NCBI GenBank assembly: GCA_965539975.1
Contig: CBETWA010000002.1
Location: 24,244 to 88,243, forward strand
DNA length: 64,000 nt
Direction of reading: 5' to 3'
Source of the DNA: an uncultured bacterium
Lineage (GTDB): Bacteria > Bacillota > Desulfotomaculia > Desulfotomaculales > Desulfallaceae
The notes beneath the pieces were generated by a model. It was not told the origin of the DNA. It made no database searches and saw only the letters and a list, made by a program, of their open reading frames with translations. Below are positions 7,990-63,701 of the stretch, in pieces; the stretch's first letter is position 1, and each line of letters starts with the position of its first letter. The position numbers and the translations under genes were made by a program.

Positions 7990-8622
7990 CTCCCCCCAGT
8001 TCCCCCCTCAGCGAAATTTGAAGCGATCAAGTTCACATTAATTCATCCGGCATCTTCTTGATTTCCTGTACCATATTCAAAATTTTACCGAGCCATAACC
8101 GGAGGTTTTGTATGATAAACAACAAACACCCGCTAGGAGCACGGGCATTTTGGGCAGTGCCGAAGCGTTAAGCAATCAATTAAGGAATTATATACATGAT
8201 ATCGCCCAGCAACTCAATTAAATATGAAAGGTTGTTTACCGCAACGATTATATCACACCAAACTAGCGGGGAGCAATAACTTTACTTTTTTGGTTTTACA
8301 TATTTCTACAACACATGATAGGAATCGTCCAATAGCATATTCATATCCCTTGGTATCTAACATTGTACTGGTAGCGTTAGAAACCGGTCTATAACAATTG
8401 TTCACAATTATGTAAAACATGTTCATCTCTTGGAAAAAGATGCTTCACATTCTTTCATTATAATTGTCCTGTAAAGGAGGTGTACTGGTTAAATATTCCT
8501 TTAATACAAAAGTGGACAAGCCTTTCTTTTAAATTTAACATTTGGCAAACTGCCCGAGAGGTAAGGGCGCAGAGATGGAGGTTTAATGTAATGGATCTCT
8601 ATTAAGAAAGGATAGGATAAAT

Positions 8623-9867
8623 GTGCGGTTTGCTATTGCGCTTATTATTTTTCTTTTCATCTTGGGTGTTTATGAACAGATAAACCATAATAAAAACTTA
8701 AACCGGATCAATATTAGGATCAATGTAAACGGCACCAGGGGCAAATCAACTGCTACAAGATTAATTACCGCTATTTTAAAGGAAGCAGGAGCTAAGGTTG
8801 TTGGAAAAACAACGGGAACCAGTGCGAGAATTATTTATTGGAACAAGGAAGAGGAAGAACCGATCAAACGAGGCCCCTTGGGTCCAAATATTATTGAACA
8901 GAAAGCGGTCGTTAAAAAAGCAGCCAAGCTTGGTGCAACTGCATTTGTAACGGAATGTATGGCCGTAAATCCCGATTACCAGATTATTTTTCAGGAAAAG
9001 CTTGTTAAAGCTAATATTGGCGTTATTGTTAATGTTCGTGAAGATCATATGGATGTGTGCGGCCCAACTTTGGATTTTATTGCAGAGTCCTTTACGGCAA
9101 CAATACCGAAAAACGGAACTCTTATTATTAATGATAGCGAATATAATGACTATTTTACTGAAGAAGCAAAGAAAAGAAACTGCCGGGTATTAATTGCAAA
9201 TGTGCATGAAATCCCGGATGGTTACCTGGAGAAATTTAAATATGTAATTTTTCCGGAAAATGTTGCCATTGCGTTGGCTGTTGCTAAAGCGCTGAACATT
9301 AACAAAGATACTGCGTTAAGGGGAATGCTAAAAGCCAATCCCGACCCGGGTGCTTTAATGATTTATACCCTGGACAAGAAAAGCCCTACATATTTTGTCA
9401 ATGGTTTTGCCGCCAATGATCCCAATTCCACACGAATGATTTGGGAGCATATAACAACTCTTGGTTACCCGACAAAAAACCCCATGGTAATTGTAAATTG
9501 CAGGCCTGATAGGGTTGACAGGACATTACAGTTAGCGGAAGAGGTCTTACCAAACATGGATATAGATATTCTTGTTGCAATGGGTCAGATAGTAAATCCA
9601 ATTACCGAAAGGGTAAATAGTAAAAAAATATCTCCTAGGAAATATGTAAATGCTGAAGGTTTGTCTCCCCATGAGGTTTATGAAACAATCAAGGATTTTC
9701 TTAAGAACAGAGTTACTTATGGGATTGGCAATATTCATGGCGGTGGCGAGGAATTAGTTGAATTGATAATTCACGACTTCCCCACTGAATTAAGAACCCG
9801 CTTCAACAAGGAAACAGGTCAGGTGCAACCAAGTACCAAAGGAAATTTAGCCATTAAAGGAGGGTAA
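8623..9867 (+). CDS. pgsB: Poly-gamma-glutamate synthase, amide-ligase subunit PgsB/CapB
   Basis: The protein is collinear with my recollection of B. subtilis PgsB: NVNGTRGKSTATRL, ECMAVNPDYQIIFQEKL, VNVREDHMDVCGPTLD, FVNGFAANDP, NCRPDRVDRT. Confidence 0.85.
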   Translation: MRFAIALIIFLFILGVYEQINHNKNLNRINIRINVNGTRGKSTATRLITAILKEAGAKVVGKTTGTSARIIYWNKEEEEPIKRGPLGPNIIEQKAVVKKAAKLGATAFVTECMAVNPDYQIIFQEKLVKANIGVIVNVREDHMDVCGPTLDFIAESFTATIPKNGTLIINDSEYNDYFTEEAKKRNCRVLIANVHEIPDGYLEKFKYVIFPENVAIALAVAKALNINKDTALRGMLKANPDPGALMIYTLDKKSPTYFVNGFAANDPNSTRMIWEHITTLGYPTKNPMVIVNCRPDRVDRTLQLAEEVLPNMDIDILVAMGQIVNPITERVNSKKISPRKYVNAEGLSPHEVYETIKDFLKNRVTYGIGNIHGGGEELVELIIHDFPTELRTRFNKETGQVQPSTKGNLAIKGG

Positions 9868-9871
9868 GCAG

Positions 9872-10324
9872 TTGCTTGTTACCACTGTTGCCACAGTCAT
9901 CATTTTGGGTGTTGTTTTGAGCTTGTTATTTACGGAAATTACCGGAATCTTGCCTGCCGGCCTGATCGTGCCAGGATATTTAGTTTTGCTTGTGGAAACG
10001 CCCCAGGCTATACTTTTAACATTTTTAATTGGTATCTTAACTTATTTTATAGTTGCTTTCGGAGTGAGCAAAATTACAATTCTATACGGCAAAAGAAAAT
10101 TCGTAGCAATGATAGCAGTTGCAGTAGTGTTGCAGCTTATTTTATATGCAACACTACCCTTAGATTATCATTATATCTCCGGATTGGCAGCAGTTGGTCT
10201 TATTGTGCCCGGATTATTAGCAAACACGATTCAGCGTCAAGGTATAGCAATAACGCTTTTAAGCACTGTATTGTTGTGTGCAATGACTTATGGCGGCACA
10301 TTACTGTTAAATATCAATATATGA
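9872..10324 (+). CDS. pgsC: Poly-gamma-glutamate synthase membrane subunit PgsC/CapC
   Basis: The 150-aa polytopic protein contains TGILPAGLIVPGYL...ILYGKRKF...GLIVPGLLANTIQRQG, matching PgsC. Confidence 0.8.
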   Translation: MLVTTVATVIILGVVLSLLFTEITGILPAGLIVPGYLVLLVETPQAILLTFLIGILTYFIVAFGVSKITILYGKRKFVAMIAVAVVLQLILYATLPLDYHYISGLAAVGLIVPGLLANTIQRQGIAITLLSTVLLCAMTYGGTLLLNINI

Positions 10325-10339
10325 GAAAGGAGGTGTAAA

Positions 10340-10564
10340 ATGAACATTTTACACGAACCGATAAATAACAAACAATACGTGAACACACCGGAAACTATCA
10401 GAGCAAAAAGTAAGCCTGAGGTTGTTACGGTTTTTAGTACACTAACATTTAAAGAAAAATGCCTGTATCTCGTTAAAATCAGCAAGAGAAATACCGTTAT
10501 TCATGCACTTTGGCTCATGGGATTAATTCTAATGATTATTACAGCGGATTATCTGTTACCATGA
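10340..10564 (+). CDS. Small hypothetical protein with one C-terminal TM helix (positional analogue of PgsE/CapE? not PgsA)
   Basis: AGGAGG precedes the ATG. The 74-aa product has the hydrophobic segment ALWLMGLILMIITADYLL. I recognise no homology. Confidence 0.3.
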   Translation: MNILHEPINNKQYVNTPETIRAKSKPEVVTVFSTLTFKEKCLYLVKISKRNTVIHALWLMGLILMIITADYLLP

Positions 10565-10660
10565 TTCTTTAAAAAAATGGGTAAAGGGGGTGGCTACCAT
10601 ATCTCATCTTCTAGCGGGTGAACTTTTACCATGTATATGCAAGAAAGGAGCGGGATAAGT

Positions 10661-11509
10661 ATGAAAAAACAATTTCTCAAAATTGCGGCTTTAGTTACGT
10701 TGTTAACATTTGGTATTGGTTTTAGCGCATATGCCTTCACATCAGGTTATAGTAGTTTTGCTGAACTAGCTGCAGCTGAAGATCCTTCAAACTATAACAT
10801 TAAAACCAATGTTGTCGGAAGCAATACAACAATTTTGGCTATACACGGAGGCGGTATTGAAAGGGGCACTTCAGAAGTAGTTGAGGCACTGGGCAGGACC
10901 GGTAAATATAACACTTATTTATTTGAAGGACTTAAAGCAACCGATAATGGGAGCCTATTTATAAAGGCTATTAATTTTGACGAACCAAAAGCCGTTAGCT
11001 TAGTTAATCAATCAGATTACACTGTTTCTGTTATCGGAGCCGCCGGCGACGACGAAGTTACTTATGTTGGCGGTCAGAATAAGTTACTGGCAGAATTGGT
11101 GAGGTTACACCTTACCACTGAGGGATATAATGTAAAAACTTTAAGTATTCCTGATCGCATTGCCGGGGTTATGGACAGCAATATAGTGAATAAGAATAAA
11201 TTGTTTAAAGGCAGTTATAAGCTCGGCGGCGTTCAGATCGCTATTTCCAAAGGGCTAAGGGATAAGCTCGTGGCTGAACCCGACACGTTAAATAATTATT
11301 CGGGCGCCATTGATCAAGCCCTTAGTCAAAGCTGGCCAACAATAGTTAAACTCATGAATAAGGTCAATGCTGATAAAGGTCAAGGGTTTTTAAATAGATT
11401 TAACCCTGACAAGCCCAACTTCGATAAGAAAATTAAAAAAGTATTAGAGAAAGGCGCCAATAACCCCGATCAATTAATTGATAATGTTAAAAAAGTAACG
11501 GAAGAGTAA
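10661..11509 (+). CDS. PghP-family (poly-gamma-glutamate hydrolase, DUF867/YjqB-like) secreted protein with a C-terminal extension
   Basis: A signal-like N-terminus starts at MKKQFLKIAALVTLL. Family motifs AIHGGGIERGTSE, YLFEGLK and FDEP are present. The ATG at 10661 with GGAG upstream is preferred. Confidence 0.7.
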   Translation: MKKQFLKIAALVTLLTFGIGFSAYAFTSGYSSFAELAAAEDPSNYNIKTNVVGSNTTILAIHGGGIERGTSEVVEALGRTGKYNTYLFEGLKATDNGSLFIKAINFDEPKAVSLVNQSDYTVSVIGAAGDDEVTYVGGQNKLLAELVRLHLTTEGYNVKTLSIPDRIAGVMDSNIVNKNKLFKGSYKLGGVQIAISKGLRDKLVAEPDTLNNYSGAIDQALSQSWPTIVKLMNKVNADKGQGFLNRFNPDKPNFDKKIKKVLEKGANNPDQLIDNVKKVTEE

Positions 11510-11530
11510 TCTGAAAAAATATTTAAAAAT

Positions 11531-11576
11531 AGGCGGGACAAGCTGACAAGATAGCTTGGCCCGCCTATATCTTTAT
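11531..11576 (+). terminator. Rho-independent terminator after the first PghP-like gene
   Basis: A 13/14-bp stem (AGGCGGGACAAGCT / AGCTTGGCCCGCCT) with an 8-nt loop is followed by a T-rich tail. Confidence 0.7.
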
Positions 11577-11580
11577 TAAG

Positions 11581-12699
11581 TTGTACAACTAAGCTTCTCT
11601 CCTGACACTTTTTGAACGCTTAGTTTCCATCTGTTCCATATACTGGTTGATGGTTTCGATAGGTCTTCTACCCATATTTCGATATCCGCGGTGGGGACGT
11701 TCATTATTATAGTGGTATAGCCATTGATCAAAGTCGTTTTGTAAGGATTCAACGCTCTCAAAGAGTTTTTCACGGAAAACAACCCTAAAAAACTCTTCCA
11801 GGGCTGTCTTATTGAAACGCTCAACGAAACCATTGGTTTGAGGTCTACCAACTCTGGTTCTGCGATGTTCAATGTCGTTTAAAGCCAGGTATATCTCGTA
11901 TGGATGTGCTTGTGTTCCACAGTATTCACGACCATTATCCGTAAGTACTACCGATACGGTAATACCCCTGTCTTCATAAAAGGGTAGAACATCATTGTGA
12001 AGAACCGCTACAGCGCACTCCGGCAATTTGCCTGTATGAAGGAATCCAAAAGCATAGCTGCCATAGGTATCAACCACGGCTTGCATGTATACTCTGCCTA
12101 CACCTTTTAAGCTACCTACGTAAAAGGTGTCCTGAGCCAGTAATTCACCAGGTCGGCTGCTTTCAATATGGCGTTCACGAAAGCAGGGATTTGCTTTTTC
12201 AATAAGTGCGATTTGCTCAGCTGTAAGTTCGATAGGCTCTTTGGCGGCTTTCTCTTCAAGTTTTAAGAGCCGTTCGTACTTTGTGCCCATGTTATTTTTA
12301 ATCAAGATATTCTGTATGGTCGGAGAACTAACGTTTATTCCCTGCAGCTTTAGCATATCGCTAAGCTTTACACAACCCCAACCAGGGTGCTGAAGGCTTA
12401 AGGACAGTATCTTTTCCACCACCTCGGGTGGTGTGGTCTGGGGATGGCTTTTGTGAATAGGCGGGAGATCTTTTAAACCTTCAAGCCCGTGAGTTTGAAA
12501 ACGACGCTTGTACTCGTAAAACTGTGTCCTTGTCATACCGCGTTGTTTACATGCCTGGGAGACATTTCCCAAGGCTTCAGCCAGTTGCAACACGCTTAAA
12601 CGTTGACGGGCGACTTTTTCGGATGGATCCACTTTATCAACTCCTCCCATAACGTAATTTTACCAGTTAATTTGTTACGGGAGAAGCTTAGTAGTACAA
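11581..12699 (-). mobile_element. IS481-family insertion sequence (complete)
   Basis: The 19-bp terminal inverted repeats are TTGTACAACTAAGCTTCTC (11581-11599) and GAGAAGCTTAGTAGTACAA (12681-12699), with one mismatch. They enclose a single DDE transposase ORF. A possible TAAG duplication flanks the element. Confidence 0.85.
11589..12650 (-). CDS. IS481-family DDE transposase (HTH plus rve integrase core)
   Basis: The N-terminal HTH is LSVLQLAEALGNVSQACKQRGMTRTQFYEYKRRF. The core contains DTFYVG...TDNGREY...RPQTNGFVERFN. Confidence 0.9.
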   Translation of the reverse strand: MGGVDKVDPSEKVARQRLSVLQLAEALGNVSQACKQRGMTRTQFYEYKRRFQTHGLEGLKDLPPIHKSHPQTTPPEVVEKILSLSLQHPGWGCVKLSDMLKLQGINVSSPTIQNILIKNNMGTKYERLLKLEEKAAKEPIELTAEQIALIEKANPCFRERHIESSRPGELLAQDTFYVGSLKGVGRVYMQAVVDTYGSYAFGFLHTGKLPECAVAVLHNDVLPFYEDRGITVSVVLTDNGREYCGTQAHPYEIYLALNDIEHRRTRVGRPQTNGFVERFNKTALEEFFRVVFREKLFESVESLQNDFDQWLYHYNNERPHRGYRNMGRRPIETINQYMEQMETKRSKSVRREA

Positions 12700-12705
12700 A
12701 TAAGT

Positions 12706-13452
12706 TTATTTATTGTTGACTGCTTCACTTATTGCGAGAACATAGCTATTCAAGGTATCTTTATTAGTTGACAAAAACTTTTTCCTTAAACCCTTCGATA
12801 TTTCTATCTGTACTCCTTGTCCGTCTATATTTTTATTCACTATGTTATCCGGCGACATGCCGTCCAGATTCTTCGGAGCATCTTTCACAGTAAAACCATA
12901 CTTCGTGAGAGATTCTTTTATTCTGTTTGCCAATTCAGTATCCCGTCCTCCGATATATGTGAATTCCTTTTCGCCGTCACACCCGTGGATTGATAATGTA
13001 ATTTTAGATTCGGAAACCATTTGCAGTGCAGCTGCTTCGGCAAATTTGTCTGAGGGGACATGTAATGAAAAATTATCTGTGCTTTTTAAGCCCTGAAATG
13101 AATAATAGTTGTAATTATTATGGGAAGCTAAGGCATAAGCTAATTCGGTAGTGCCTTTTTCAATTTTACCTCCATGAATAGCCACAACTGCAACATTAGA
13201 ATCGGTTACATTAGCTTCAATTTCATAATCAACATCCACACTCGTTTGAAAATCCAACAATCTTTTTAAATCATTAATTTCATTTTTTTGTGCTTTTATT
13301 TTTTCATTAGCGATATCCAATTGTTTTTCTAGTGCCTTATTCTTATCTTCCAATTTTGCACTTTCGTATTTTACATAACCTAAATAACCTAACAATAAAA
13401 AAAATAATAAAGTAAATACATTAATTAATGTAACTTGCCTTCTTATATTCAT
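12706..13452 (-). CDS. PghP-family poly-gamma-glutamate hydrolase-like protein, membrane-anchored with a coiled coil
   Basis: An N-terminal TM segment and coiled coil are followed by AIHGGKIEKGTTE, YSFQGLK, SIHGCDGE and GVQIEISKGLR. The predicted metal triad H..E...H is intact. Confidence 0.7.
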   Translation of the reverse strand: MNIRRQVTLINVFTLLFFLLLGYLGYVKYESAKLEDKNKALEKQLDIANEKIKAQKNEINDLKRLLDFQTSVDVDYEIEANVTDSNVAVVAIHGGKIEKGTTELAYALASHNNYNYYSFQGLKSTDNFSLHVPSDKFAEAAALQMVSESKITLSIHGCDGEKEFTYIGGRDTELANRIKESLTKYGFTVKDAPKNLDGMSPDNIVNKNIDGQGVQIEISKGLRKKFLSTNKDTLNSYVLAISEAVNNK

Positions 13453-13532
13453 TTCTTTCCTCCACTAACAAGTGCTTATTAAACTTAAGAAGCCCTCGCT
13501 TGAGGGCCTTTTTGGTCATTTAATCCAACTGC

Positions 13533-13765
13533 TCATTGAGCATATCGTCTTGCTCCAACATATAGTGGACTCCAATGACTATCTGAGATATTAAGGTCAC
13601 GAATTGCTACACCTTCGGACTCTGTTATAATGATAAACTGCTCACTCCCAATATACAATATCGGTAGTAGCACCTTGCTGAATCCCTCAAAGAATAAAAC
13701 ATCTCCAATATTTAAATCTTCCCTTTTATTTCTATTCCTAAAGCCCGTTGTTGAGATAAATATCT
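13533..13765 (-). pseudogene. C-terminal remnant of an NlpC/P60-type (PgdS-like?) peptidase domain
   Basis: My hand translation gives ...NIGDVLFFEGFSKVLLPILYIGSEQFIIITESEGVAIRDLNISDSHWSPLYVGARRYAQ*. There is no ATG, no catalytic Cys region, and an upstream in-frame stop. Confidence 0.35.
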
Positions 13766-13806
13766 TGGTGAATCAATATCTAAACCTGCTTTCGTAACGT
13801 ATTCAG

Positions 13807-14751
13807 TCAACAATTCAGCATGGTGTCCCCGAAATTTTTGGTAAACCGGCCCACAATCTCCTCGTCAGTGATGAAAGTGCGAAAGGCTTTGGAAACCAGG
13901 CTTTCCTTGCCGGGACGGTTCCAGGCCAGGTAAAGCTCGTAACTGAATTTCACCCCCGGGACGGTTATCTCTCCTAGGGCGTCCTTTTCCAACAGCTCCG
14001 CCACCGCCCAGCGGGAAACCACCCCGAAGCCCAGGCCCAGACGGACGGCGTTGATTACTGCCTGGGTACTGCCCATTTCTAACACCCCCGCAAACTGGTC
14101 CAGAGAAATATTGTGTTTGAATAGTTCACGCTCCAGGGCCTGCCTGCTGCCGGAACCCGCTTCCCGTACGATGATGGACTCATTGGTCAGAGCCGCCAGG
14201 GGAACCTCCTCCCCCTTCAGCGGGTACCAGGGAGGGGTGACCACCACCATTTGGTCGGTTATCCATGGCTCGCACTCCACTCCTTCGGCTTTAACGGGAT
14301 ACCCCGTAACTCCAATTTCGATTTCACGTTCTTTCAGCCAGTGAGCCACCTGTGCACTGCCACCCACCTGCAGGCTTACGGTAACCCCGGGGAATTGTTC
14401 CCGAAAACCGCCGATGGCCATGGGCAGCAGGCATTCCCCCGCCACCGGCACAGCACCCAGCGCCAGGTGCCCCGCCTTTACCTCCCGCAGGGCATCTATA
14501 CCAGCCTTGATCTTATTATACATTCTTACCATTTGCAGAGCGTTGGGGTATAGCAACCTGCCCGCCTCGGTAAGAACCACCTTTTTATCTGTGCGCTCGA
14601 ACAAAGTTATGTCCAGTTCCTCTTCCAGTGACTTAATTTGAAAGCTGATGGCAGGCTGGCTCATATCAAGCTGTGCCGCCGCGCGAGTGAAATTTTTCAG
14701 CTGGGCAACCAGTAGAAAGGCTTCAAGCTGTTTTATATTCAAAGTAATCAC
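13807..14751 (-). CDS. LysR-family transcriptional regulator
   Basis: The N-terminal HTH is LEAFLLVAQLKNFTRAAAQLDMSQPAISFQIKSLEEEL, followed by a LysR substrate-binding fold. Confidence 0.85.
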   Translation of the reverse strand: MITLNIKQLEAFLLVAQLKNFTRAAAQLDMSQPAISFQIKSLEEELDITLFERTDKKVVLTEAGRLLYPNALQMVRMYNKIKAGIDALREVKAGHLALGAVPVAGECLLPMAIGGFREQFPGVTVSLQVGGSAQVAHWLKEREIEIGVTGYPVKAEGVECEPWITDQMVVVTPPWYPLKGEEVPLAALTNESIIVREAGSGSRQALERELFKHNISLDQFAGVLEMGSTQAVINAVRLGLGFGVVSRWAVAELLEKDALGEITVPGVKFSYELYLAWNRPGKESLVSKAFRTFITDEEIVGRFTKNFGDTMLNC

Positions 14752-26817: not shown

Positions 26818-28233
26818 ATGCAGGCCAAAAGAGACTGGGAAAAGATTATCAGGAGAATGGAGCAGTTGATGCGGCTCAAGTCTTTTCCGGTGGCTTTTAA
26901 AATGCTGGAAAACAAAAATGAACTGGAAAATATCCCCTTTATGCGCCGTATGAACAAGAAGGTCACCCTCTGCCAGCTAATCACCCTGGTCAGAAACTTT
27001 GACTGGACGGTGGGAGCCGAACTGTCCGACTTCCTTTCCCCGACCTGCGCTTCCATACTGGGCTTGGCGGATACCCCGGATTTTTACAAGGACGGCACCT
27101 TCCGCAGCATCGTCTGGGTTAAAAACCGGGAGGACGGCAAAAAGTACGAGGCCTCCATTCCCCGGCTGCCCCTGGGGAAATACCAGGCGGTGGCCATGGC
27201 CCCGCTGGTATACAACCCTTTTGAACCCGATATCGTGTTATTTTACGCCAACCCGGCCCAGATGATGCTCTTGATCAATTCCCTCCAGTTTGAAAATTAC
27301 GAGGTCATGCATTTCTACTGCGTGGGCGAGTCTTCCTGCTCCGACGCCATCGCCCGGTGTTACCTGACCGGTAAACCGTCCCTGACCATACCATGTTACG
27401 GTGAAAGGCGCTACGGGCACGCCCAGGACGATGAACTGGTGATGGCCGTGCCGGTGGACATGGTAGAGAAAGCATTGAAAGGCATGGAAGCCCTTTACCG
27501 CAGGGGAATCCGCTATCCCATCAGCTTTGCCGGTGCCGAGCAGGACTTGACAAGTGCCTTCCCCGGTTCTTACAGCAGCCTGGGACAGCTGGAACTCATC
27601 CGGGGTAGTGACAACCGCCTGTTGCTTGGAGTTACCGGGGGCATCGCCACCGGCAAGAGTACCGTGGTGGAAATGCTCCGGCAAAAGGGCGCTTACGTCA
27701 TCGATTTCGATTTGCTGGCCAGGAAAGTGGTAGAGCCCGGTAAGCCGGCCTGGAAGGATATTGTGGCTTATTTCGGGGAGCAAGTCCTGCGGGAAGACCG
27801 GGCACTGGACCGGAAGAAGCTGGCGGACCTGGTATTCAAGGATATGGAAAAGCGCAAGAAGCTGGAAAGTTTCACCCACCCCAGGATAAACGAGGAGTTC
27901 GTCAAGGAACTGGGCGATATTACATCCAGGGACCCGAACGCGATTATCATGGTTGACATACCACTGATGATCGAACTCAACCTGCAGTACATGTTCCATA
28001 AAACCCTGGTGGTCTACGTACCCCGGGAGATTCAGCTCGAACGGTTGATGAAACGCGACGGGATTAGCCGCGAGGAGGCGCTGAACAGGCTGGCGGCACA
28101 GCTGCCCATTGAAGAGAAGACAGGATACGCCGACTTTGTCATCAACAACGCGGGCCCGCTTGAAGATACACAAAAACAGGTGGATGAATTATGGGAGAAA
28201 CTGAAACAAATCCAGCGGGAAAAGATGGCATAA
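26818..28233 (+). CDS. coaE: Fusion protein: N-terminal DUF169 (COG2043) domain plus C-terminal dephospho-CoA kinase
   Basis: Residues ~1-255 are DUF169-like (FPVAFKML...CQL...PTCASILG...FYCVGESSCSD). From ~270 the protein reads LLLGVTGGIATGKSTVVEML...DFDLLAR...VDIPLMIE, which is typical CoaE. Confidence 0.7.
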   Translation: MQAKRDWEKIIRRMEQLMRLKSFPVAFKMLENKNELENIPFMRRMNKKVTLCQLITLVRNFDWTVGAELSDFLSPTCASILGLADTPDFYKDGTFRSIVWVKNREDGKKYEASIPRLPLGKYQAVAMAPLVYNPFEPDIVLFYANPAQMMLLINSLQFENYEVMHFYCVGESSCSDAIARCYLTGKPSLTIPCYGERRYGHAQDDELVMAVPVDMVEKALKGMEALYRRGIRYPISFAGAEQDLTSAFPGSYSSLGQLELIRGSDNRLLLGVTGGIATGKSTVVEMLRQKGAYVIDFDLLARKVVEPGKPAWKDIVAYFGEQVLREDRALDRKKLADLVFKDMEKRKKLESFTHPRINEEFVKELGDITSRDPNAIIMVDIPLMIELNLQYMFHKTLVVYVPREIQLERLMKRDGISREEALNRLAAQLPIEEKTGYADFVINNAGPLEDTQKQVDELWEKLKQIQREKMA

Positions 28234-28280
28234 TGCCGCAAGGCCAAAAAAACCGAGACTCCCATGCCGCTATCGCAACA

Positions 28281-28622
28281 CCAGCAGAAAGATAAACACA
28301 TATGGGTATACCTGTTCCGGTCGAGCGATTTGCGGGAGCGCCGGTAACGGCACCCAGCGTAGCGAGGTTACGAAACCGGACGAGCGAACAGGACGTTCGC
28401 GAAAGCCTTTCCCGAACCGCAGACGGTGAGTTTATGGCGGTCCGGTTTCGGAAAGCGGTCAGGGGACACACCTCCCCTTTGGGGTCAAATCTTTTGGGTC
28501 GGAGGTATGTCCCCAACGGATAAGCCGCTGGTGCTGTCGACGCGGAAGTCTAAAGCGCTGCGGGGACCACCAGCCCACAAGAGACAAAAAAGTATTTTCT
28601 GGGTAGTATTTTCCGGGTAGAT
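28281..28622 (+). repeat. Structured multicopy element, copy R1 (5' end and core intact; 3' module replaced)
   Basis: GGGTATACCTGTTCCGG starts at 28304 and is collinear with 40510 onwards up to about 28555. It then carries GCGGGGACCACCAGCCCAC and a tandem AGTATTTTCYGG outer motif. Confidence 0.8.
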
Positions 28623-28697: not shown

Positions 28698-29237
28698 TTA
28701 TTCCGCCGGTTTTTTGGGAACTTTAAGCGTTTGATTCACCTGCAACACCGATTCCAGTGTCAATCCATTTAACTGGGCTATTTGAGACGCGTAGCTTTCC
28801 GTGCCGTACAGGGATAGGGATATGCCGTTCAAAGTATCCCCTGGTTTGACAACATAATTTGTGTAATCGCCTCGGGTTTCGGAGCCGCCTGCGCCGGTTC
28901 CTGTACTGCTTGCGCTTGTCCCGTCGCCATTTTCGTCATCGTCTTCCCGGGCTTGATTTTCCCCGCCGGTTTTTTGTACCCGGTTGTCATTTTGAGCAAT
29001 GCTGACCTGTAGAGCTTGAATTTCTTCATTAAGTTTTTCGATCTCCACTTTTAATTTTTTGTTCTCTATCGCCAGAAAAGCTCGCTCATTGTTGACATAC
29101 CACATACCGAACAATAAGACAATCACCAGTGCGGACGTGACGATGGACAACAGTTTCCACTTAAATCCCTTTTTGTTCCCGCTGGTTGTGTCTTCTGGTT
29201 CGTACGACATGTCTTCAAACTTGCTCATTTGTGACAC
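28698..29237 (-). CDS. LysM-domain membrane protein (N-terminal TM, coiled coil, C-terminal LysM)
   Basis: The C-terminus YVVKPGDTLNGISLSLYGTESYASQIAQLNGL...LQVNQTLKVP is a LysM motif. The TM segment is LLSIVTSALVIVLLFGMWYV. Confidence 0.75.
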   Translation of the reverse strand: MSQMSKFEDMSYEPEDTTSGNKKGFKWKLLSIVTSALVIVLLFGMWYVNNERAFLAIENKKLKVEIEKLNEEIQALQVSIAQNDNRVQKTGGENQAREDDDENGDGTSASSTGTGAGGSETRGDYTNYVVKPGDTLNGISLSLYGTESYASQIAQLNGLTLESVLQVNQTLKVPKKPAE

Positions 29238-29504
29238 CTTTCCACTAAAAATAAAATATTTTTACCGCACATTATTATACCATACAGCCGGGGGACGGGC
29301 TACTTTTTACTTTTCTCTACCTTTTGCAGCAATCCTTTCGTTCACGCGCACTTGACGATTCGCTGGCATCAATTTAAGTACCGCCGGGATGCCATTAAAA
29401 CCGTTTTTTTGACAATGCGCTATAATAAAAAGTCCCGGTCAAACCGTGTAGGTGCCGGGACTTTGTTATCACCTGTTATGTTGAACTATACTTTTACTGC
29501 TGTA

Positions 29505-29562
29505 CCGGAACAGGTATACCCATGCCCAAGAGTATTTTCTGGGCAGTATTTTCCGGATAGAC
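29505..29562 (+). repeat. Solo terminus of the multicopy element (TIR plus outer subterminal repeats only)
   Basis: CCGGAACAGGTATACCC is followed by ...AGTATTTTCTGGGCAGTATTTTCCGGATAGA. No element core is adjacent. Confidence 0.7.
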
Positions 29563-29570
29563 CTCCATGC

Positions 29571-29995
29571 CGCGCTGCGGCACCAGCAGTAAGATGAAAA
29601 TAGCACTGGGGTGGGCTGGTGGCTCCCCGCAAGTGATGTACTGGAGCGTCGGTAACGGCACCCGGCGCAGCGAGGCTACGAAACCGGACGAGCGAACAGG
29701 ACGTTCGCGAAAGCCTTTCCCGAACCGCAGACGGTGAGTTTATGGCGGTCCGGTTTCGGAAAGCAGTCAGGGGACACACCTCCCTTTTTGGGTCGAAACT
29801 TTTGGGTCGGAGGTATGTCCCCAACGTATAAGACGCTGGTGCCGCCGGCGCGGGAGTTTTTAAACTCAGTGACGGTCGCCGCCGCCCGTGATATGTTCTT
29901 ATCCTTCTAAATGGTGCCGTTTTGGTAATGCGTCACCTATTGGGAAAAAGCGAGACGGAACAGGTATACCTATACTAAGGAGCGTTTTCCGGGTG
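29571..29995 (+). repeat. Structured multicopy element, copy R2 (canonical 5' TIR replaced; core, 3' module and 3' TIR intact)
   Basis: The outer 5' flank GCGGCACCAGCAGTAAGATGAAAATAGCACT resembles the R5 and R1 flanks. GTGGGCTGGTGGCTCCCCGC then replaces the TIR. From 29643 the copy is collinear with R3 and ends CGGAACAGGTATACC at 29970. Confidence 0.8.
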
Positions 29996-40398: not shown

Positions 40399-40482
40399 GC
40401 GCTCACCCGCTTGGAAATATGTGAAATAATTGACTCACTTAATTGTTTTTATATTGTACCTTAATTCCTATTAAAAAAAAAT

Positions 40483-40885
40483 CTCTACCCACAAAATACT
40501 CTTGAGTGCGGGTATACCTGTTCCGGTGGAGCGACTTGCAGGAGCGCCGGTAACGGCACCCGGCGCAGCGAGGTTAAAAAACCGGACGAGCGAACGTGAT
40601 GTTCGCGAAAGCCTTCCCCGAACCGCAGATGGCGAGTTTATGGCGGTCCGGTTTCGGAAAGCGATCAGGGGACATACCTCCTCTTTAGGGTCTAATCTTT
40701 GGGGCCAAAGGTATGTCCCCAGCGTATAAGCCGCTGGTGCCGCCGGCGCAGGAGTTTTTAAAGGCAGTGGTGGTTTTTGCCCGTCAATATGTTCTTATCC
40801 TCACCAATGGTGCTGCTACTGTAGTGCGTAACCTGTTTAGAAAAAGCGAGACGGAACAGGTATACCCACGTGTACTTTTATCCTT
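40483..40885 (+). repeat. Structured multicopy element, copy R3 (full length; type copy)
   Basis: The core runs from 40510 GGGTATACCTGTTCCGG to CGGAACAGGTATACCC at 40867, with conserved outer flanks of about 20-30 nt. It is intergenic. Confidence 0.85.
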
Positions 40886-50890: not shown

Positions 50891-51069
50891 AAAAATGCTC
50901 TTGAGTTTAGGTATACCTGTTCCGTCTCGCTTTTTCTAAACAGGTGATGCACCACATAAAAAATACCACTGGTGAGGATAAGAACATATTTACTGGCAGC
51001 AACCACCACCGTGCTTAAAAACTCCCGCGCCGACGGTACCAACGGCTTATACGCTGGGAATATACCTCC
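50891..51069 (-). repeat. Structured multicopy element, copy R4 (3' half only, opposite orientation)
   Basis: The plus strand reads AAAATGCTCTTGAGTTTAGGTATACCTGTTCCGTCTCGCTTTTTC..., the reverse complement of the R3 3' module. Homology stops inside the 14-bp hairpin (GGAGGTATA at ~51069). Confidence 0.75.
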
Positions 51070-58190: not shown

Positions 58191-58286
58191 TGGAGGGGAG
58201 AAGTCGGAATCGAACCGGACTCCCGCCTGGATCACAGGCAGGCCAACGGGTTTGCAGCCCGCGGGGGGACCATCCCCTTTCTCCCC
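58191..58286 (-). tRNA. tRNA-Sec-like tRNA with Cys anticodon GCA and U73 (8-bp acceptor, long variable arm, encoded CCA)
   Basis: My hand fold of GGGGAGAAAGGGGAUGGUCCCCCCGCGGGCUGCAAACCCGUUGGCCUGCCUGUGAUCCAGGCGGGAGUCCGGUUCGAUUCCGACUUCUCCCCUCCA is detailed in the finding. The T-loop is UUCGAUU. Its own promoter TTGGAA-N18-TAGAAT ends about 8 nt upstream. Confidence 0.8.
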
Positions 58287-63092: not shown

Positions 63093-63195
63093 CACTGCAA
63101 TGCCTATTTTTAGTTTTCCTCCTAGCCACTGGCGTCAAGCCGGGCTTCTCCGGCTTTTTCCTCCGGTGCTTTTTCTATAGACCCCCATACCGTGT

Positions 63196-63460
63196 AGCGG
63201 CACCAGCAAAGAATGAAAATACTAGTGGGTATACCTGTTCCGGTCGAGCGATTTGCGGGAGCGCCGGTAACGGCACCCGGCGCAGCGAGGTTACGAAACC
63301 GGACGAGCGGCCAGGACGGCCGCGAGAGCCATAATCCGAACCATGGATGGTGAGTTTATGGCGGTCCGGTTTCGTCCGAAGCAAGCCTTGGTGCCGTCGG
63401 CGCGGGAGTATATGAGCGAGACGGAACAGGTATACCCATAATAAAAAGCGTTTTCCTGGT
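63196..63460 (+). repeat. Structured multicopy element, copy R5 (short form lacking two internal modules)
   Basis: The core runs from 63227 GGGTATACCTGTTCCGG to CGGAACAGGTATACCC at 63437. It keeps the termini, the GUAA hairpin, the AAACCGGAC/GUCCGGUUU helix and the GGUGCCGUCGGCGC arm. It lacks the 14-bp hairpin module and the ~110-nt 3' module. Confidence 0.8.
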
Positions 63461-63701
63461 GACATCCCCGTCTTCACCATATCCCGGCATGTAACCTTTG
63501 CAGCCGGGCGCGTAACCTGTTCAATCATTCCCATGACTGCTCAGCGACATGTCGAAGTGGGCGCACCTTCGCCCCTGCACTGGTATTTACTAACATAGTA
63601 TTTTATTCCAATCCAATGGGTTACGAGGGAGCCATATTTATGTTGTTGTTTACTTCCTTGCAAGTACAACTTCTGCCGCTTAAGTACTTGTCTTTCCAGA
63701 T

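Follow-up and report, generated by a model that had tools for sequence, protein, structure and literature searches.

A probable canonical TwoAYGGAY RNA element carried on a multi-copy intergenic repeat of a Desulfallas-like Firmicute

The TwoAYGGAY motif was described as an RNA with two AYGGAY terminal loops and an often very large P1 stem, occurring in Clostridia, gamma-proteobacteria and gut metagenomes (Weinberg 2010, PMC2864571 and supplement), with a P1 of about 24 bp in the original description (PMC2864571 supplement). It was rated a probable RNA, neither cis-regulatory nor a riboswitch, and was given no function (PMC2864571). [quoted passage not shown] TwoAYGGAY has remained an orphan since its description in 2010, and it is described as relatively unexplored in a 2025 preprint.

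The 64-kb stretch of DNA analysed here (the window) contains five copies of a repeat, R1 to R5, and one lone terminus, amid unrelated housekeeping genes. We conclude, with a probability of roughly 85%, that R5 is a canonical member of TwoAYGGAY (RF01731) and that it sits on a multi-copy intergenic repeat of a Desulfallas-like Firmicute; the family has already been described, and R5 is an addition to it from a new lineage. In an Rfam scan of the whole window, R5 matched RF01731 at 63253-63411 on the + strand over model positions 1-168 (51.3 bits, E = 1.8e-5), above the curated gathering score of 43 bits, whereas R1, R2 and R3 stayed below it. When these three were searched alone, their best Rfam match was again TwoAYGGAY on the + strand (27.7, 27.7 and 20.0 bits), limited to the two-hairpin core at model positions 46-112. 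The fold of R5 has a z-score of -9.05 against shuffles; its reverse strand folds comparably (-9.17), as expected of a long imperfect palindrome. The parts of R5 are the following.

63177-63226, + strand: conserved 5' leader, with a hairpin ACCGU-GUA-GCGGC, then CACCAGCA, then GAAAAUACU (alignments of copies)
63227-63245, + strand: 5' arm of outer P1, GGGUAUACCUGUUCCGGUC, pairing with 63420-63437 in folds
63253-63411, + strand: full-length match to RF01731 TwoAYGGAY (covariance-model score)
63261-63277, + strand: 5' arm of inner P1, made of GCGCCG, a GUA bulge and ACGGCACC, pairing with 63390-63403
63296-63304, + strand: 5' strand of the P2 helix, AAACCGGAC, invariant in 14 of 14 copies, in the metagenome copies by construction because P2 was in the search pattern
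63307-63323, + strand: hairpin 1, GCGGCC-AGGAC-GGCCGC, with GGA in the loop
63328-63362, + strand: hairpin 2, with tandem G.A/A.G (63338-63339 with 63352-63353) and the loop AUGGAU at 63343-63348 (fold and Rfam alignment)
63364-63372, + strand: 3' strand of the P2 helix, GUCCGGUUU (folds and alignment)
63390-63403, + strand: 3' arm of inner P1, GGUGCCGUCGGCGC (folds and alignment)
63420-63437, + strand: 3' arm of outer P1, GACGGAACAGGUAUACCC (folds and alignment)
63438-63460, + strand: conserved 3' trailer, ending in AAAAGCGUUUUCCUGG

Transcribed from the + strand, R5 would fold into a rod built from leader/trailer pairing, outer and inner P1 and a short P2, and leading to a three-way junction. 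This junction would hold two hairpins, the first presenting AGGAC and the second, which carries the tandem G.A motif, presenting AUGGAU. The very large closing P1 typical of the family is found in the folds as two segments (63227-63245/63420-63437 and 63261-63277/63390-63403). The AYGGAY loops are likewise found: AUGGAU at 63343-63348 in full, and AGGAC at 63313-63317 one base short, keeping A..GGA.Y; the corresponding hairpin 1 loop of one relative, L070, is AUGGAC. The tandem GA of hairpin 2, another mark of TwoAYGGAY, is kept in all 14 aligned copies. The GAAAAUACU segment of the leader can pair with the trailer, and the minimum-energy fold includes this extended pairing. The same leader precedes R1, R2 and a marine-sediment copy (L073), the AUUUUC-N-GGG motif of the trailer is also found after R1, R2 and the lone terminus and after most copies from the metagenomes, and the 3' arm of outer P1 in R5 also terminates R2, R3, R4 and the lone terminus at 29499-29522.

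The original prediction had treated R5 as a short variant that defines a minimal core of the repeat, and every sequence detail that it gave for R5 was confirmed on reading the sequence. Of the two termini, GGGTATACCTGTTCCGGTC occupies 63227-63245 and GACGGAACAGGTATACCC occupies 63420-63437 (direct reading and five-copy alignment), CCGGTAACGG lies at 63264-63273 as proposed, the helix AAACCGGAC 63296-63304 / GTCCGGTTT 63364-63372 is in place, and the GGTGCCGTCGGCGC arm was located at 63390-63403. For the GUAA hairpin the sequence stands and the structure is ambiguous, since CCG-GUAA-CGG might just as well form a 3-nt (GUA) bulge within the long P1. Rfam and the minimum-energy fold both place the GUA of R5 as such a bulge; a local GCCG-GUAA-CGGC hairpin is equally possible, and the observed variants fit both. 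R5 does lack the hairpin module GGGGACACACCTCC...GGAGGTATGTCCCC, whose stem consists of 13 pairs and one mismatch, and it lacks the 3' module. The latter exists as described, except that its length is about 90 nt rather than about 110 nt (R3 40755-40844, against 6 nt in R5). R1 is also without the 3' module, so that the window has three architectures. The other copies in the window are listed here.

28250-28620, + strand: R1, with the hairpin module, no 3' module and a right arm of B type; 27.7 bits at 28378-28443
29557-29995, + strand: R2, with both the hairpin and the 3' module and a left arm of B type; 27.7 bits at 29686-29751
40480-40880, + strand: R3, with both modules and GGA in neither hairpin loop; 20.0 bits at 40584-40649
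50892-51068, - strand: R4, 5'-truncated, keeping the 3' half of the hairpin module, the 3' arm of inner P1, the 3' module and the right terminus

R1 to R3 are decorated and partly degenerate TwoAYGGAY relatives in which one or both GGA loops have been lost: R5 has two such loops, R1 and R2 have one each and R3 has none. R4 is without the two-hairpin core entirely. The outer arms of R1 and R2 (28305-28575 and 29609-29975) are swapped: the left arm of R1 is A-type and its right arm B-type (CTGCGGGGACCACCAGCCCAC); in R2 the left arm is the complementary B-type GTGGGCTGGTGGCTCCCCGCAAG and the right arm is A-type. The outer stem cannot be closed within either copy. A LysM gene (28698-29237, minus strand) lies between the B arms, which form inverted repeats around it. 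As an origin of the swapped arms, a single crossover was considered and rejected, as its geometry fails for both direct and inverted cores.

Relatives outside the window were collected by a metagenome scan anchored on the P2 helix and the junction only, with the hairpins left free. The scan gave 11 related loci (the L numbers used in this text) in two JGI metagenomes and in a marine-sediment assembly, all of them true relatives, 80-90% identical to R5 and with unrelated flanks. Three pass the RF01731 threshold (48.7, 46.6 and 43.8 bits). Most of them share the architecture of R5, so R5 represents the usual form rather than a reduced derivative. The 60-nt hairpin module was found in the 3' arm of four metagenome copies and in the 5' arm of one (L066), and the 90-nt 3' module was confined to the window copies R2 to R4. 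Both modules are optional additions, and P2 with the two hairpins (about 63296-63372) is the smallest shared core. The earlier view that the family is modular and that R5 shows its core is supported by these relatives, since most are R5-like and the modules are optional.

At the level of individual loci, the 60-nt module, GGGGACAYACCTC...GAGGTATGTCCCC, occupies 2370-2432 of L066 within the 5' arm, and lies in the 3' arm of L065, L067, L069, L071 and R1 to R4; about 150 kb of sequence contained no instance of it outside an element. Other searches added no members. The 18-mer TTTATGGCGGTCCGGTTT gave 13 single matches in the genome collection, about the number estimated from the collection size, and by nhmmer none of these was a family member. 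Viral contigs did not match the core pattern and matched a 15-mer of the terminus only by chance, and R5 had no blastn match in the plasmid and phage collections. Apart from paralogous ABC ATPases, no flanking genes were common to the window and the metagenome loci.

From two stems that differ between copies, the original prediction had proposed that base pairing is under selection and that a structural alignment of homologs would show this. We carried out this check on 14 copies (four from the window and ten from the metagenomes), using the structure of the R5 fold together with the module hairpin, and found covariation on the modelled strand, resting on a small number of independent events. 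In this alignment, 82.3% of stem cells pair, compared with 34-39% when partners are slid, and both sides have changed at 28 pairs, a number attained in 0 of 500 shuffles; these controls overstate the significance, because the copies are related and the structure comes from one of them. RNAalifold, run on five short copies with no structure supplied, returned the same architecture (70 pairs, of which 13 are compensated), and the pairing controls agree with the curated covariation of Rfam RF01731. Selection on base pairing is borne out by these results within the few independent events available, and the aligned sequences support pairing maintained by selection on the + strand.

The individual helices differ in how they have changed. 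The outer P1 arms (helices 8 and 9) vary in sequence among lineages, those of the window, those of the JGI organism and those of L073 being wholly different, yet remain complementary. Inner P1 (helices 11 and 12) is 97-98% paired, and its one-sided changes are all G.U or U.G. Hairpin 1 (helix 17) is 100% paired in the 14 copies, with both-side changes at two pairs. The change in this stem had been correctly reported: R1 and R2 have GCGAAC-AGGAC-GTTCGC and R3 has GCGAAC-GTGAT-GTTCGC, and on reading 63307-63323 R5 indeed has GCGGCC-AGGAC-GGCCGC, so that G:C and C:G stand where the others have two A:U pairs. The three versions of the stem are GCGAAC/GUUCGC, GCGGCC/GGCCGC and, in L073, GCGGAC/GUCCGC; the last looks intermediate, implying approximately two compensatory events. 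The second case, a small hairpin in which the third pair was proposed to run through G-C, G.U and A-U, fared less well. Its tips read as stated (CCG-CAGA-CGG in R1 and R2, CCG-CAGA-TGG in R3 and CCA-TGGA-TGG in R5), but the third pair holds for the window copies only; the loops of the metagenome relatives are AGGAC or AUGGAC, and the third-pair positions there are A.C or absent. These positions may be part of the conserved AYGGAY loop and not a selected pair.

The tolerance of G.U pairs had also been taken as a hint that the repeat functions as RNA in the orientation of R3 (+). This reading is supported by three lines of evidence. The core stems of the 14-copy alignment contain 67 G.U or U.G cells versus 21 A.C or C.A cells, the + strand fold is the more stable in 14 of 14 copies with a mean advantage of 9.5 kcal/mol, and all Rfam matches to TwoAYGGAY are on the + sense. 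Within the module hairpin, the distal part also has G.U pairs in most, if not all, of its seven carriers. Conservation extends to the internal loops GGGAG and GAGCGA, which have the same sequence on both arms and are therefore not complementary; conservation of this kind points to constraint on a single strand rather than on duplex DNA. We propose that the copies act at the RNA level on the + strand, in a predicted fold that would present two GGA loops on a long rod.

Consensus scans provided some candidate signals for transcription. No consensus promoter or terminator bracketing R5 on the + strand was seen in the scans; a TTGACT-16-TATTGT site was seen upstream of R3, and a terminator-like bidirectional hairpin lies between R5 and sodC. 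In the long variants (40737-40759 and 29839-29861), the 3' arm of inner P1 is followed by GGGAGUUUUU, which the scan flagged as terminator-like. If GGGAGUUUUU is used as a terminator, transcripts would stop before reaching either the 3' module or the outer arm of P1.

Both neighbours of R5, the Fe-ADH C-terminus and sodC, are on the minus strand, so that R5 is antisense to each; an exact look-up of the sodC product gave no record. Across 16 copies, the orientation relative to neighbouring genes is sense in 11 and antisense in five, and sense copies often start about 5-25 nt past the upstream stop codon (L065, L069, L070, L071, L074 and R1). In L064, a T-box leader (351-593, 111.8 bits) is directly followed by a sense element (611-879) and then by a 928-aa ORF that starts at 917; this places the element between leader and gene and so inside a regulated 5' UTR. 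A single 91-kb metagenome contig carries three copies, and a short-read contig of the organism from which the window comes ends inside R1. At least five TwoAYGGAY copies with repeated flanks are present in Psychromonas ingrahamii, making multi-copy spread a trait of the family.

The surroundings of the copies offered further observations. Tandem (CAGGAGT)n heptamer arrays were noted at L064 6146-6243, at L069 9414-9469 and in the flanks of the L065, L066, L069 and L071 copies; in the related metagenome organism such arrays flank most copies, sometimes inverted on the far side, and they are also found alone, with 14 and 8 units. Each unit contains CAGGA, a sequence that resembles the CsrB repeat CAGGAUG. 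Elsewhere in the window, a selenocysteine tRNA gene lies at 58195-58286 on the - strand (Rfam RF01852, 48.1 bits), and 8000-14000 has a low G+C content (0.38-0.40, compared with about 0.52 elsewhere) and may be acquired DNA. A DUF169-CoaE fusion protein is encoded at 26818-28233 on the + strand. A relative 87% identical to it is in Desulfallas sp. Bu1-1, the closest named relative of the organism, and relatives labelled Desulfobacteraceae or Deltaproteobacteria are 75-79% identical, which is unusually high across phyla. Neither Desulfallas sp. Bu1-1 nor a JGI relative has a copy of the repeat in the 35 kb around coaE, and downstream synteny is lost there.

Dispersed intergenic imperfect palindromes are familiar from the REP/BIME, ERIC, Correia, RUP and BOX elements, which are found in either orientation, include partial copies and are often co-transcribed. 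The repeat might have no RNA function and be a MITE-like non-autonomous DNA transposon whose termini are inverted repeats for a transposase encoded elsewhere and whose stems are a by-product of the palindrome. Much about it agrees with such a transposon: the copies are multiple, dispersed and intergenic, lie in both orientations relative to genes, include truncated copies and a lone terminus, end in 18-19 bp inverted repeats, fold well on both strands and are missing from the coaE locus in close relatives. However, no transposase was found nearby, and inspection by eye revealed no target-site duplication at the P1 boundaries of R3, R5, L064, L068, L070 and L073, where the true ends are uncertain because leader and trailer are conserved as well. 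The termini, though inverted, are not common to the copies in sequence, with A and B types in one genome and other arms in relatives; arms that differ and are nevertheless complementary would fit an RNA stem better than an end recognised by a protein. A transposon with no RNA function would also not account for the strand-specific G.U excess (67 to 21) and energy advantage of the + strand (14 of 14), the conserved hairpin loops and non-complementary internal loops, or the match to an RNA family with covariation support, and we consider it unlikely.

It is somewhat unlikely, in our view, that the copies serve mainly in the processing or stability of mRNA, where P1 of a co-transcribed element would be an RNase III site or a barrier to exonucleases, as in REP, ERIC and Correia, and the GGA loops would be incidental. 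The position of most copies between co-directional genes, often in sense soon after the upstream stop, the copy between a T-box leader and its gene, and the near-perfect duplex of 18-40 bp in P1 would all suit this role; five of the 16 copies are antisense to their neighbours, and the three-way junction, tandem GA and GGA loops, which are common to distant TwoAYGGAY members, are left unexplained by it. Both the transposon and the stability readings can coexist with an RNA-level role of the repeat. A coding function, by contrast, is extremely improbable. A small protein could be encoded on the + strand from an ATG in the leader, which R2 and L073 share and from which both are open through to the same TGA, or by a minus-strand ORF at 63175-63534; ORFs do cross the copies, and tblastn finds similarity between them. 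This protein-level similarity just mirrors DNA identity, the leader of R5 has ATA and TAG, and R1 is in another frame. Single-nucleotide indels separate GGTTACG from GG-AGCG and CC-AGGAC from CCAAGGAC and occur in the hairpin 2 loop, and we reject the coding reading on account of these frame-breaking indels and the non-conserved frames.

Returning to R5 as a TwoAYGGAY RNA, the published candidate for a binding partner is CsrA. The SELEX consensus for CsrA, RUACARGGAUGU, places GGA in a hairpin hexaloop (PMC7652899), and the selected ligands mostly had weak stems. Loop 2 of R5, CC-AUGGAU-GG, resembles the ARGGAU of this hexaloop. The GGA motifs of R5 are at 63314-63316 and 63345-63347, 31 nt apart, and R5 is the only copy in the window with two such loops. 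Spacings of 10-63 nt have been reported for GGA pairs bound by CsrA. The two loops could form a paired site for a dimeric RNA-binding protein, and, with CsrA as the partner, + sense copies would titrate it or recruit it to the transcript that hosts them. The mixed orientation relative to neighbouring genes, the antisense position of R5, the lack of a consensus promoter or terminator around it, the stable stem of hairpin 1 and the high copy number, which is unusual for a dedicated sponge RNA, count against such a role. Among the 14 copies, the hairpin 1 loop contains GGA in 13 and the hairpin 2 loop in 10, with CAGA in its place in R1 to R3. As R1 to R3 keep the stems and have lost GGA loops, these loops may not be the selected feature in those copies. 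A tblastn search with E. coli and B. subtilis CsrA found no csrA in the 64-kb window or the fetched loci, which are a small part of each genome. In bacteria that carry FliW, such as Firmicutes, no CsrA-binding sRNA is established, and a review states that it is unknown there whether sRNAs act on CsrA.

A broader proposal would make TwoAYGGAY elements mobile carriers of a two-site docking module for CsrA, or for another protein that binds GGA loops, such that sense landings put transcripts under its control and the copies collectively titrate it. We regard this as quite improbable at present. Should it be true, the elements would be an RNA arm of the Csr system for FliW-type Firmicutes. Spread through an RNA intermediate would fit 5'-truncated copies that keep the 3' end, together with the strand-specific structure. 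Remnants of this kind, retaining the 3' terminus and trailer, are found at 29480-29545, at 50892-51068 (-) and at 11790-11866 of L069, and no 3'-truncated counterparts were seen among the copies in the window and the metagenome loci.

The window adds to TwoAYGGAY a Desulfallas-like lineage in which the motif has been amplified and diversified within one genome, and shows it travelling as a dispersed repeat with optional modules. The current Rfam model misses the long variants R1 to R3, and the window should for this reason inform modelling of the family. The copies also form a natural series, from R5 with two GGA loops through R1 and R2 with one and R3 with none to R4 without the core, and could be ready-made controls for binding and expression work.

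Compared with the RNAs that sequester CsrA (CsrB, CsrC and RsmX/Y/Z), TwoAYGGAY similarly displays GGA motifs in hairpin loops. It differs in having two sites per element and not 5-22, in having no evident dedicated promoter or terminator, and in the many copies that are embedded between genes; the stable 6-bp G+C stem of hairpin 1 in R5 is also unlike the mostly weak-stemmed SELEX ligands. The repeat resembles REP/BIME, ERIC, Correia, RUP and BOX, as these are generally known, in dispersal, palindromy, orientation and partial copies, and is set apart from them by its branched core, specific loop motifs, strand-specific pairing and occurrence in distant phyla. Within TwoAYGGAY, the loop of hairpin 1 in R5 is one base short of the typical form (AGGAC), and R1 to R3 have GCAGAC or GCAGAU as the second loop and score below threshold. 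Unlike typical members, this lineage has a rod lengthened by a conserved leader and trailer, a 60-nt hairpin module that is optional and occurs at two different places, and a 90-nt 3' module. As in TwoAYGGAY (RF01731) generally, R5 has a very large P1, a three-way junction, two AYGGAY-type loops and a tandem GA stem, and it belongs to a Clostridia-type Firmicute host with several copies per genome.
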